Shown: positions 55,663 through 58,886 of the stretch, in pieces | Layout: each line of letters starts with the position of its first letter | How positions within the stretch are numbered: the stretch's first letter is position 1 | Sequence record: MZ234013.1 | Reading direction: 5' to 3' (one strand) | Origin: Escherichia phage vB_EcoM-101112UKE3-1 | Length of the DNA: 64,000 bases | Position numbers and translations under genes: made by a program | The notes under the pieces: model-generated | Told to the model about the DNA's origin: nothing | The model's database searches: none | Seen by the model: only the letters and a program-made list of their open reading frames with translations

Positions 55663-55691
55663 TTTACTTTTCCTCTTGACTGTGGTATAAT
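55663..55691 (+). promoter_or_regulatory. T4 early-type promoter upstream of regB
   Basis: gtttac, 17 nt, TGgTATAAT (perfect extended -10). Confidence 0.6.
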
Positions 55692-55718: not shown

Positions 55719-56180
55719 ATGACTATCAATACAGAAGTTTTTATCCGTAGAAATAAGCTTCGTCGTCATTTTGAGTCGGAGTTTCGTCAAATTAACAATG
55801 AGATTCGTGAGGCATCAAAAGCAGCAGGGGTCTCATCGTTTCATCTAAAATATTCTCAGCATCTTCTTGATCGTGCAATTCAACGGGAGATTGATGAGAC
55901 ATATGTTTTTGAATTATTCCACAAAATAAAAGACCATGTTTTAGAAGTTAATGAATTCCTGAGTATGCCTCCGCGTCCTGACATTGACGAGGATTTTATT
56001 GATGGGGTTGAATATCGTCCTGGACGTTTAGAAATCACAGATGGAAATCTTTGGCTTGGATTTACAGTTTGTAAACCTAACGCGAAGTTCAAAGACCCGT
56101 CACTTCAATGTAGGATGGCAATTATCAACAGTCGTCGTTTACCAGGAAAGGCTTCTAAAGCAGTAATTAAAACTCAATGA
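55719..56180 (+). CDS. regB: RegB site-specific endoribonuclease
   Basis: 153 aa, same as T4 RegB; SD gaggag. Confidence 0.85.
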   Translation: MTINTEVFIRRNKLRRHFESEFRQINNEIREASKAAGVSSFHLKYSQHLLDRAIQREIDETYVFELFHKIKDHVLEVNEFLSMPPRPDIDEDFIDGVEYRPGRLEITDGNLWLGFTVCKPNAKFKDPSLQCRMAIINSRRLPGKASKAVIKTQ

Positions 56181-56187
56181 GGTAAGC

Positions 56188-56733
56188 ATGAGAAAAGCAC
56201 TACTCGCTGGTCTATTGGCCATTTCAATGATGGCACATAGCTCCGAGCATACTTTCAGTAATGTCCAACTCGATAACATGCGTTACGCGTATCAATTCGG
56301 GGAACAATTTTCTAAGGATGGAAAATATAAAACACACAAAAATATCCACAAGAGCGGATTAGGTCATATAATGGCTGCTATTTTATGGCAAGAAAGCTCT
56401 GGCGGAGTTAATTTAAAATCTAAACCAAAGCATCACGCTTATGGAATGTTCCAAAATTATTTGCCTACTATGCGAGCAAGAGTTAAGGAACTTGGTTATA
56501 ATATGACCGATGCTGAAATAAAAAGAATGTTGAATAAACGATCCAATTCAGCTTCCTGGGCGTACATTGAACTTTCTTATTGGTTAAATATACATAAGGG
56601 CGATATAAGAAAAGCAATATCCTCTTATAATTCGGGATGGAATGTTAAAGCTGGTTCTAAATATGCTTCTGAAGTCCTAGAAAAGGCTAATTACCTTAAA
56701 AATAATAAACTTTTGGAAATAGTAAATGACTAA
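56188..56733 (+). CDS. secreted lytic transglycosylase-like protein (SLT domain)
   Basis: Signal peptide MRKALLAGLLAISMMAHS; SLT-like motifs WQESSGG, YGMFQ, SYNSGWN. Confidence 0.6.
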   Translation: MRKALLAGLLAISMMAHSSEHTFSNVQLDNMRYAYQFGEQFSKDGKYKTHKNIHKSGLGHIMAAILWQESSGGVNLKSKPKHHAYGMFQNYLPTMRARVKELGYNMTDAEIKRMLNKRSNSASWAYIELSYWLNIHKGDIRKAISSYNSGWNVKAGSKYASEVLEKANYLKNNKLLEIVND

Positions 56734-57067
56734 AATTTTGGTTTTATGTATAGGATTAATTTCATTTTCTGCGTTAGCAGATACATCATATACTGAAATT
56801 AGAGAGTATGTAAACCGTACTGCCGCGGATTATTGTGGGAAAAATAAAGCATGCCAAGCTGAATTTGCGCAGAAATTAATATATGCATATAAAGACGGAG
56901 AAAGAGATAAATCAAGCAGATACAAAAACGATACATTATTAAAACGATATGCTAAAAAGTGGAATACCTTAGAATGTTCAGTTGCGGAGGAGAAAGATAA
57001 AGCCGCTTGTCATTCAATGGTTGACCGTTTGGTAGATTCTTATAATCGAGGATTGAGTACTAGATGA
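56726..57067 (+). CDS. secreted hypothetical protein (signal peptide, four Cys)
   Basis: MTKILVLCIGLISFSALA leader; 113 aa; overlaps upstream stop. Confidence 0.5.
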   Translation: MTKILVLCIGLISFSALADTSYTEIREYVNRTAADYCGKNKACQAEFAQKLIYAYKDGERDKSSRYKNDTLLKRYAKKWNTLECSVAEEKDKAACHSMVDRLVDSYNRGLSTR

Positions 57068-57531
57068 TTGTAAAATATATCAAGGGCGATATTGTCGCCC
57101 TTTTCGCTGAAGGTAAAAATATTGCGCATGGATGCAATTGTTTTCATACTATGGGTTCAGGCGTAGCGGGTCAATTAACCAAAGCTTTCCCTAAAATTTT
57201 GGAAGCTGATAAATTACAGACTGAATGGGGTGATGTAACTAAACTCGGTTCTTACTCAGTCTATGAAAAATACTTTAGGACTCATAAAGCGTATTGCTTC
57301 AACCTTTATACTCAATTTCAACCAGGGCCAAATTTTGAGTATTCCGCTTTAATGAATTGTATGCTAGAATTAAATGAGTTTGGTGAAAATAAACTGATTA
57401 AACCTACAATCTATATGCCTAGGATTGGTGCAGGCATAGGTAAAGGGAACTGGGATATTATTGAGGGGATTTTAGATACATATTCCTCTAAATTAGAAAT
57501 TGTGATTGTTGATTGGGAACCGTTATTATGA
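57064..57531 (+). CDS. TARG1/OARD1-like macrodomain protein (putative ADP-ribosyl hydrolase)
   Basis: YIKGDI...NIAHGCNCFHTMGSGVAGQL...MPRIGAGIGKG aligns by eye with human TARG1 (VKGDLF...SLAHCISEDCRMGAGIA...MPRIGCGLDRL). Confidence 0.6.
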   Translation: MIVKYIKGDIVALFAEGKNIAHGCNCFHTMGSGVAGQLTKAFPKILEADKLQTEWGDVTKLGSYSVYEKYFRTHKAYCFNLYTQFQPGPNFEYSALMNCMLELNEFGENKLIKPTIYMPRIGAGIGKGNWDIIEGILDTYSSKLEIVIVDWEPLL

Positions 57532-57740
57532 ATATACATTATCCACATCCATATGACCCAAAGAATAAGGCAGTAATTATTCGTCAATGGGAACGCATTT
57601 GCCGTACTAAATGTCCAATTAATAGTCCGCATGATGTAGATAAAGACTACATTGGAACATTCGTTGAATATACCTTTATTGATAAGAAAGGTCGTAAACA
57701 GCATGTAGAAGAATACTGCTTAAAGGTTACATGGTTATGA
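57528..57740 (+). CDS. hypothetical protein
   Basis: 70 aa from the ATG at 57528 overlapping the upstream stop. Confidence 0.4.
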   Translation: MNIHYPHPYDPKNKAVIIRQWERICRTKCPINSPHDVDKDYIGTFVEYTFIDKKGRKQHVEEYCLKVTWL

Positions 57741-57943
57741 GCCAAACTAGTATTCTTAAAAATGCCCATTGTGAAAAGTGTAAATGGCCAGTTGTTTTTG
57801 CTTTATGCAACGATGAAATGGCTTGTGATTTCGATTATTGGTGCTATTGTTCTAATAAAGGATGCATCAATCATAAAGGTGAAGGATTTTATTCGGGATT
57901 TTATCCTTATCCAGATTTCGTTAAAGAAGGTAAACCGAAATGA
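57731..57943 (+). CDS. Cys-rich small protein (possible Zn-binding)
   Basis: 70 aa with CEKC...C...C...CYC...GC pattern; SD aaggt. Confidence 0.4.
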   Translation: MVMSQTSILKNAHCEKCKWPVVFALCNDEMACDFDYWCYCSNKGCINHKGEGFYSGFYPYPDFVKEGKPK

Positions 57944-58113
57944 ATAGTTTTGAGTTACAGTATGAAGTGTTACGTGAGCTTGATAATTTAATTGAACTCG
58001 CTGTCAATAAAGGTTTTGCCATTGGAATCGGTCAAAAAGATACTGGTCATTTAACTATGGAAATATTTAAGCAAAAGCGAATTATTTTAAAACTCCTGGA
58101 AATTAATATATGA
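57940..58113 (+). CDS. small hypothetical protein (57 aa)
   Basis: Hand-translated MNSFELQYEVLRELDNLIELAVNKGF...; ATGA overlaps at both ends; below track cutoff. Confidence 0.35.
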   Translation: MNSFELQYEVLRELDNLIELAVNKGFAIGIGQKDTGHLTMEIFKQKRIILKLLEINI

Positions 58114-58295
58114 GTCTGAGTAAAGAACAAAAAGATAAATTGTTTGAGCTTATCCATGAACTTCTAGATGAGCATACAGAAGCAAACACCTTTTATGATG
58201 AATACGGCCCGCTATCTCCCGAACAGCAAGAAGAATTTGCTGATCGGTTTGATAAGAAAGAAAACGAATTAATAGCTTATGTGAATATGCTTTAA
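58110..58295 (+). CDS. small acidic hypothetical protein
   Basis: 61 aa; coupled to neighbours. Confidence 0.45.
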   Translation: MSLSKEQKDKLFELIHELLDEHTEANTFYDEYGPLSPEQQEEFADRFDKKENELIAYVNML

Positions 58296-58304
58296 GAAGG
58301 TGAT

Positions 58305-58886
58305 ATGGCGAGTTTAATTTTTACTTACGCAGCAATGAATGCTGGAAAATCTGCTTCTCTTTTGACTGCTGCACATAATTATAAAGAACGCGGAATGGGT
58401 GTATTAGTTCTTAAGCCTGCTATTGATACTCGCGATTCTGTCTGTGAAGTCGTTTCTCGCATTGGAATTAAGCAGGAAGCGAATATTATTACGGATGATA
58501 TGGATATTTTTGAGTTCTATAAATGGGCTGAAGCACAAAAAGATATTCATTGTGTATTTGTAGATGAAGCTCAGTTTTTAAAAACTGAACAGGTGCATCA
58601 ATTAAGTCGAATTGTTGATACATATAATGTTCCTGTTATGGCTTATGGGCTAAGGACTGATTTCGCTGGAAAATTATTTGAAGGTTCTAAAGAACTTTTG
58701 GCGATTGCAGATAAACTTATTGAACTAAAGGCAGTTTGTCATTGTGGTAAAAAAGCTATTATGACAGCTCGATTAATGGAAGATGGAACACCAGTTAAAG
58801 AAGGTAATCAAATCTGTATTGGTGATGAAATTTATGTTTCTTTGTGTAGAAAACATTGGAATGAATTAACTAAAAAGCTCGGTTAG
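58305..58886 (+). CDS. tk: thymidine kinase
   Basis: 193 aa; P-loop AAMNAGKS; C-terminal Zn-ribbon Cys pairs; matches T4 Tk. Confidence 0.9.
   Translation: MASLIFTYAAMNAGKSASLLTAAHNYKERGMGVLVLKPAIDTRDSVCEVVSRIGIKQEANIITDDMDIFEFYKWAEAQKDIHCVFVDEAQFLKTEQVHQLSRIVDTYNVPVMAYGLRTDFAGKLFEGSKELLAIADKLIELKAVCHCGKKAIMTARLMEDGTPVKEGNQICIGDEIYVSLCRKHWNELTKKLG

Follow-up and report, generated by a model that had tools for sequence, protein, structure and literature searches.

Introduction

The main known substrates of human TARG1, a macrodomain protein of the ALC1/TARG1-like class, are Asp/Glu-linked protein ADP-ribose and OAADPr. SCO6735 from Streptomyces coelicolor, a member of the same class, strips DNA of thymidine-linked ADP-ribose, and it rescues cells from DarT (PMC9411070). 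Its activity was abolished or reduced by the substitutions Q85A/E, N27S and G128E, with Q85A being inactive. A water molecule held by the backbone of Val25 was proposed as the proton donor, and Val/Ile25 was termed a 'SCO6735-specific feature' (PMC9411070).

For phage T4, a further anti-DarTG2 factor had been predicted from the continued resistance of T4 without adfA and adfN (PMC11825919). The discovery of adfM, reported in the HIDEN-SEQ preprint (20 Nov 2025; bioRxiv 10.1101/2025.11.20.689424), answers this prediction. A T4 transposon library was screened there on a DarTG2-expressing host, with tk.4 as the sole transposon hit, and T4 became sensitive to DarTG2 when tk.4 was cleanly knocked out. 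The gene was dispensable on defence-free E. coli K-12 and was a hit with DarTG2 only. The authors gave it the new name adfM (anti-DarT factor, macrodomain), noted the structural similarity of its product to Mtb DarG and stated of an enzymatic removal of ADP-ribose from the DNA that it 'seems likely'. As far as it is available, the preprint offers genetics and a structural match without biochemistry or discussion of catalytic residues (bioRxiv 10.1101/2025.11.20.689424), and our literature search found neither a biochemical assay nor a catalytic mutant of T4 AdfM. The same name and DarTG2-protecting role belong to the single-domain macrodomain AdfM of chimalliviruses (PhiKZ gp104, PhiPA3 gp108), which is expressed late and imported into the phage nucleus (Cell Rep 2026, PMC13309987). 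PhiKZ AdfM hydrolysed a T-ADPr oligonucleotide in vitro, with N23 and K78 as active-site residues (PMC13309987).

We analysed a stretch of 64,000 nucleotides (the window) of Escherichia phage vB_EcoM-101112UKE3-1 (MZ234013.1), for which an earlier note had proposed a TARG1-like macrodomain with a regulatory or anti-defence function. Its suggestion of anti-defence against DarT acting on DNA is borne out by the screen and the clean knockout of the identical T4 protein, as given in the preprint (bioRxiv 10.1101/2025.11.20.689424), and its remark that no characterised T4 macrodomain gene was known at this locus has been overtaken by the same source, tk.4 being adfM. The finding of a macrodomain with an anti-DarTG2 role is correct and already known for the identical T4 protein, the genetics coming from a preprint.

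Results and discussion

Gene identity and locus

The earlier note had reported a 155 aa ORF, and an ATG-initiated frame of this length indeed occupies exactly 57064-57531 on the + strand (Table 1). By tblastn, its product was 100% identical (155/155 residues) to T4 'ORF 60.5' (X04567) and to the gene tk.4 product in the T4 genome OZ209057. The identity to T4 Tk.4 is therefore established, with no difference at the protein level. The DNA was ~97.9% identical to T4 over 54.5-60.1 kb of the window, except for a swapped segment between tk.3 and tk, and 99.9% identical to phage MLP2 over 3 kb. Judged from these alignments, the window is a T4-like Tequatrovirus with a T4-identical Tk.4, and not T4 itself (~98% DNA identity here).

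Table 1 Features of the tk.4 (adfM) locus, with positions counted from the first nucleotide of the window
Feature	Position	Strand	Remarks
Candidate sigma-70-type (T4 early-type) promoter	55663..55691	+	TTTACT-17-TATAAT, extended -10 TG, 10/12 matches; upstream of regB
regB-like endoribonuclease	55719..56180	+	Upstream neighbour
vs.1, SLT-domain protein	56188..56733	+	Upstream neighbour
vs	56726..57067	+	Directly upstream of tk.4
ORFs overlapping tk.4	57040..57147; 57411..57704	-	ORF listing; the + strand gene accounts for the locus
tk.4 / adfM CDS	57064..57531	+	ATG start, 155 aa + stop, single-domain macrodomain protein; ORF listing
ATGA overlap, vs stop / tk.4 start	57064..57067	+	Sequence
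H-G-C-N-C, codons 22-26	57127..57141	+	H 112/117, G 116/117, C 111/117, N 116/117, C 116/117
Asn25 codon	57136-57138	+	Equivalent of DarG Asn22, SCO6735 Asn27
M-G-S-G-V-A, codons 30-35, first glycine-rich ADP-ribose (phosphate) binding loop	57151..57168	+	Aligns to TARG1 MGAGIA, DarG MGKGIA
Gln84 (CAA), invariant Y-T-Q motif	57313..57315	+	Q in 117/117; position of TARG1 Lys84, DarG Lys80, SCO6735 Gln85
P-R-I-G-A-G-I-G-K-G-N-W, codons 119-130, second glycine-rich loop	57418..57453	+	Gly126 at TARG1 Asp125 position
ATGA overlap, tk.4 stop / tk.3 start	57528..57531	+	Sequence
tk.3, DUF7202 protein, 70 aa	from ATG 57528	+	Directly downstream of tk.4; T4 annotation also 70 aa
Small ORF, 70 aa, Pfam Phage_zn_bind	57731-57943		Between tk.3 and tk
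Small ORF, 57 aa	57940-58113		Between tk.3 and tk
Small ORF, 61 aa	58110-58295		Between tk.3 and tk
Thymidine kinase tk	58305..58886	+	Downstream, past tk.3 and small ORFs

The genes follow one another on the same strand in the order regB - vs.1 - vs - tk.4 - tk.3 ... tk, and the position of tk.4 between vs and tk.3 is common to T4 and the window. The overlap of vs with tk.4 suggests translational coupling, and the ATGA overlaps at both ends of tk.4 fit a translationally coupled block. Since vs overlaps tk.4 in this way, knockouts of either gene need to be checked for polar or coupling effects. According to the preprint, vs (valyl-tRNA synthetase modifier) was the T4 gene most strongly depleted in minimal medium (bioRxiv 10.1101/2025.11.20.689424). 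The vs.1 product (181 aa), annotated only as 'unknown function' in the T4 record, matches the Pfam SLT lytic transglycosylase domain (25.1 bits vs a cutoff of 21.3) and carries a hydrophobic, signal-like segment at its N-terminus. On the other side of tk.4, the Pfam DUF7202 match starts at residue 6 of a longer, TTG-initiated tk.3 ORF. Further downstream, the window genome has a different tk.2/tk.1 segment: positions 57742-58304 gave no megablast-level T4 match while the flanks were ~98% identical to T4, and the replaced segment holds three small ORFs compared with two in T4 (61 and 62 aa, both PHROG 653). No DarT gene was found beside tk.4 in the window, the neighbours being vs, vs.1 (SLT), tk.3 (DUF7202), a zinc-binding ORF and tk.

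The assignment of the gene to the early region by the earlier note is reasonable in view of the same-strand block from regB to tk with its ATGA overlaps. The nearest same-strand promoter-like site, upstream of regB, could drive regB-vs.1-vs-tk.4. However, the number of sigma-70-like sites in the region did not exceed that in shuffled sequence (promoter scan), and a pattern scan detected no MotA-box middle-promoter pattern from 47.5 kb to tk.4, so that it is only from gene order that early expression of tk.4 would follow. Within codons 7-13 of tk.4, a perfect 9-bp stem with a 3-nt loop (AAGGGCGAT-ATT-GTCGCCCTT) was observed at 57082-57102, 18 nt past the start codon, where it was flagged by the terminator scan on the minus strand; the surrounding 81-nt region had a folding z of -2.2. 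The stem may influence how translation starts or how stable the mRNA is, or it may be a coincidence.

Fold and class

Pfam family Macro (PF01661) matched residues 22-132 of Tk.4 with 27.7 bits (gathering score 22; E 2.9e-6). Searching the PDB with the single Tk.4 sequence returned BT1257 (1.3e-9), Poa1p, SCO6735, DarG and TARG1. A profile of the 71-sequence Tk.4 family recovered BT1257 (3e-19), TARG1/OARD1 (1.3e-15), SCO6735 (3.9e-15), Mtb DarG (4.8e-14), Poa1p (6.7e-14) and Taq DarG (1.2e-11), while nsP3/MacroD-type domains were reached at only ~4e-3. The AlphaFold2 model built from the 71-sequence alignment (pLDDT 95.5, pTM 0.90) displayed a three-layer alpha/beta/alpha fold with a mixed central sheet, and TARG1, Poa1p, BT1257 and DarG took its top Foldseek ranks. 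Furthermore, two glycine-rich loops corresponding to the ADP-ribose diphosphate site (G31-x-G33-x-A35 and I121-G122-x-G124) were invariant or nearly so in 117 homologues. The macrodomain fold assumed by the earlier note is established, with the Pfam, profile-vs-PDB, AlphaFold2 and Foldseek searches in agreement. Both by sequence and by structure, the nearest neighbours fall in the ALC1/TARG1-like class (TARG1, DarG, SCO6735, BT1257, Poa1p), clearly apart from the MacroD, nsP3, macroH2A and PARG types. Tk.4 is a macrodomain of the ALC1/TARG1-like class.

Conserved residues and active site

Residue counts were taken from an alignment of 117 Tk.4 homologues. Equivalences between proteins were derived from an HMM alignment to TARG1 and from a family-anchored alignment that included verified PDB chains, with the sequences for DarG and SCO6735 taken from PDB searches; the two agreed, and we regard the equivalences as established. 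Both were preferred over a six-sequence MAFFT alignment because they match the structure-based equivalence in PMC9411070; in the MAFFT alignment, which was dropped, SCO6735 and BT1257 were displaced by four residues in the central strand.

All four sequence blocks listed by the earlier note (GD-I/L, AH-C, MG-G-A and MPRIG-G) were present, as G8-D9-I10, A21-H22-G23-C24, M30-G31-S32-G33-V34-A35 and M118-P119-R120-I121-G122-A123-G124, and they coincided with the most conserved columns of the 117-homologue alignment, far beyond chance. In the first glycine-rich loop, G33 and A35 were invariant and M30/G31 nearly so; in the second, P119, I121, G122 and G124 were invariant, with G122/G124 corresponding to SCO6735 G126/G128.

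The likeness to human TARG1/OARD1 (C6orf130; PDB 4j5r and others) that the earlier note had drawn holds at the level of the class, but does not extend to the mechanism: the catalytic dyad Lys84/Asp125 is replaced by Gln84/Gly126 in Tk.4, and in the family Gln84 is universal while position 126 is Ala in 88 and Gly in 29 of the 117 homologues, never Asp. At Gln84, the HMM alignment shows 'LITK' for TARG1 and 'MIGQ' for BT1257. A similar difference separates Tk.4 from DarG, the antitoxin of DarTG2 (Thermus aquaticus, M. tuberculosis; PDB 5m31, 5m3e, 5m3i). DarG Asn22 is kept as Asn25 (116/117), but L-Y-T-Q84 aligns to F-P-T-K80 of Taq and Mtb DarG, so that the catalytic Lys80 is gone. With this lysine of DarG and TARG1 absent, the chemistry of T4 AdfM should not be presumed DarG-like. 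Moreover, at 155 aa compared with ~330-340 aa for DarG, Tk.4 has no C-terminal DarT-binding domain. Indeed, the PADLOC DarG model covered Tk.4 with positions 2-145 of 329, and the NCBIfam DarG equivalog scored 30.3 bits against a cutoff of 250 with positions 2-146 of 338.

An active-site parallel is offered by SCO6735 and BT1257 (Bacteroides thetaiotaomicron), both stand-alone ALC1-like macrodomains with 26-29% identity to Tk.4. Like SCO6735, in which the conserved Asn locks the Gln, Tk.4 carries Gln at the Lys84/Lys80 position together with this Asn and the loop glycines (Gln84, Asn25 and Gly122/Gly124, each invariant or almost so). Unlike SCO6735 and BT1257, it has H-G-C-N-C instead of H-V-C-N-D, and Gly23 (Gly in 116/117 homologues) in place of Val/Ile25. 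The mobile loop that follows the Gln is ~6 residues shorter: 7 residues separate Q84 from a conserved Tyr in T4 and 83/117 relatives, compared with ~13 in SCO6735/BT1257, and the T4 loop has no Lys and thus lacks the equivalent of the DNA-binding Lys89 of SCO6735. Going by these residues, Tk.4 represents a distinct clade with a SCO6735-like core and is neither a TARG1, a DarG nor a typical SCO6735 orthologue. With respect to Poa1p, for which the mutants H23A and S30A are known from PDB titles, His22 aligns with His23 and Thr29 (T in 73/117) with Ser30.

The T4 protein is also remote from its chimallivirus namesake: it shares ~21% identity with PhiPA3 gp108 (BLASTP E 2e-5, hhalign 96.5%), and has 'LYTQ' where chimallivirus AdfM has the DarG-type 'FPTK' with its Lys (K78). 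T4 and chimallivirus AdfM were most plausibly recruited independently, each from a different subfamily of the class.

Proposed function and alternatives

Taken together with the genetic need for tk.4 on DarTG2 hosts, which the literature reports, we consider it probable that AdfM counters DarTG2 by removing DarT2-made thymidine-ADP-ribose from phage ssDNA, and we hold this with more confidence for the role than for the chemistry. In the proposed sequence of events, the DarT2 toxin of the host DarTG2 system places ADP-ribose on thymidines of single-stranded phage DNA and blocks replication, while AdfM, a small single-domain macrodomain enzyme, would be made early in infection. Its glycine-rich cleft would most likely bind the ADP-ribose moiety, and the enzyme would most likely cleave the thymine-ribose bond by hydrolysis, so that ADP-ribose is set free and the DNA is restored. 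AdfM would thus act as a free-standing stand-in for the macrodomain half of the DarG antitoxin, with an active site of the SCO6735 Asn+Gln type and not Lys-based as in TARG1/DarG. In SCO6735, the distal ribose is positioned by the Gln, and the proposed agent of the chemistry is a water held by the backbone. For T4 AdfM, both the hydrolytic mechanism and the thymidine-ADP-ribose substrate are inferred.

Two features of the T4 sequence speak against this reading. One is the missing catalytic Lys of DarG/TARG1; the other is that Val/Ile25 and the long Lys-bearing mobile loop, both associated with DNA activity in SCO6735, are missing as well, although the role of residue 25 in SCO6735 is backbone-mediated, which softens the objection raised by Gly23. 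It also counts against the reading that the genetics comes from a preprint and was done on T4, to which the window is only a relative, although the protein is identical. The absence of the canonical Lys also favours another explanation, in which AdfM protects mainly without catalysis, by binding DarT2 or by shielding ADP-ribosylated or target ssDNA ('interaction-inhibition'). A precedent exists, as SCO6735 Q85A, DarG K80A and TARG1 K84A still inhibit DarT on DNA in vitro, with SCO6735 being the strongest (PMC9411070). We nevertheless regard protection of this kind as unlikely. Across the 117 homologues, there is little or no variation at the residues required for hydrolysis in SCO6735 (Asn, Gln and the two loop Gly), which fits selection on catalysis, and AdfM is without the DarG C-terminal domain that binds DarT, its matches spanning positions 2-146 of DarG models of 329-338 positions. 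Moreover, a stoichiometric inhibitor should co-vary with DarT variants, whereas the Tk.4 family is conserved and widespread (2,750 phage records).

It is highly improbable that Tk.4 is instead a small-molecule hydrolase, either a Poa1p-like ADP-ribose-1''-phosphate phosphatase or an O-acetyl-ADP-ribose deacetylase, with the DarTG2 phenotype being secondary. We know of no source of Appr-1''-p in T4 infection, since T4 RNA repair proceeds by Pnkp/Rnl1 and not by the Tpt1 pathway. The phosphatase and deacetylase labels of Tk.4 were transferred by homology, and the sole functional data, those in the preprint, are genetic and point to DarTG2. As ALC1/TARG1-like macrodomains are commonly promiscuous in vitro, a small-molecule activity would not exclude a role on DNA in any case.

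Least credible of all is the idea, also raised in the earlier note, that Tk.4 erases the phage's own Alt/ModA/ModB marks and so regulates host RNA polymerase, ribosomal protein modification or RNAylation. The residue targeted by Alt and Mod is arginine, while ALC1/TARG1-like macrodomains are, to our knowledge, known for Asp/Glu esters and thymidine and not for Arg-linked ADP-ribose. Although T4-like phages are established to encode three ARTs, and SCO6735 and TARG1 also act on protein-linked ADP-ribose (PMC9411070), we found no support for a regulatory eraser, and tk.4 was dispensable on defence-free E. coli K-12 and a hit only with DarTG2, according to the preprint (bioRxiv 10.1101/2025.11.20.689424). 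A link to CmdTAC, an mRNA ADP-ribosyltransferase system that defends against T4, was considered and dropped, as the CmdTAC paper contains no macrodomain counter-defence.

Distribution, origin and annotation

Tk.4-type matches were found in 2,750 phage records, most of which label the protein 'phosphatase' or 'hypothetical', compared with 291 for DarG-type macrodomains, and the family is widespread in Felixounavirus, rV5-like and PAK_P1-like phages. The 80 closest bacterial relatives (35-43% identity) were nearly all stand-alone proteins of ~150 residues. Among their 129 neighbours, the commonest Pfam families were unrelated housekeeping genes; DarT was absent from the top 25 families and accounted for at most 1/129. 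A tblastn search of Tk.4 against plasmids returned stand-alone or SLOG-fused macrodomains only and no annotated DarG. As DarG models match the macrodomain part only and the stand-alone relatives have no recurrent DarT, a recent capture of DarG is not supported, and descent of Tk.4 from stand-alone macrodomains appears more likely than from a captured DarG.

Further observations were made along the way. The bacterial neighbours included two NADAR-domain proteins and two NAMPT/NAPRTase, which hints that a few 'bacterial' contigs are phage-derived or represent NAD-conflict islands. Nine neighbours, from Desulfobacter-type loci, were semialdehyde dehydrogenases, an ordinary chromosomal context. 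In Thermus phage phiMa (MH673674, 27029-27472), a macrodomain with 82% identity to that of Thermus aquaticus DarG was detected; unlike the T4 type, it looks like a recent phage capture of a genuine DarG-type (Lys) macrodomain.

In near-identical phage genomes, tk.4 is labelled 'phosphatase', 'Poa1p-like family protein', 'ADP-ribose binding module protein', 'macro domain protein' or 'hypothetical protein'. Of these, 'phosphatase' goes back to PHROG 335 and is homology-based. The family is very common in phages and widely mislabelled 'phosphatase'.

Conclusions

More tentatively, and with somewhat less than even confidence, we propose that T4 AdfM may be a third type of active site that erases DarT2 marks: a short-loop clade with Gly23/Asn25/Gln84, set apart from both the DarG Lys type and the SCO6735 type with Val/Ile and a long Lys loop, which would derive from stand-alone bacterial macrodomains and form the dominant phage macrodomain family. 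If this is true, anti-DarT2 factors would make up most of PHROG 335, and such enzymes may act on other nucleic-acid or protein substrates as well.

T-even phages carry separate erasers for the two DarT chemistries, guanine being served by AdfN (NADAR) and thymine by AdfM (macrodomain), a point already made in the preprint. The additions of the present analysis are modest: the SCO6735-like Asn/Gln site without the Lys of DarG/TARG1, the distance from the chimallivirus namesake and the mislabelling of the family. These points matter for annotation, for the design of biochemical tests and for predicting DarTG2-resistant therapeutic phages.
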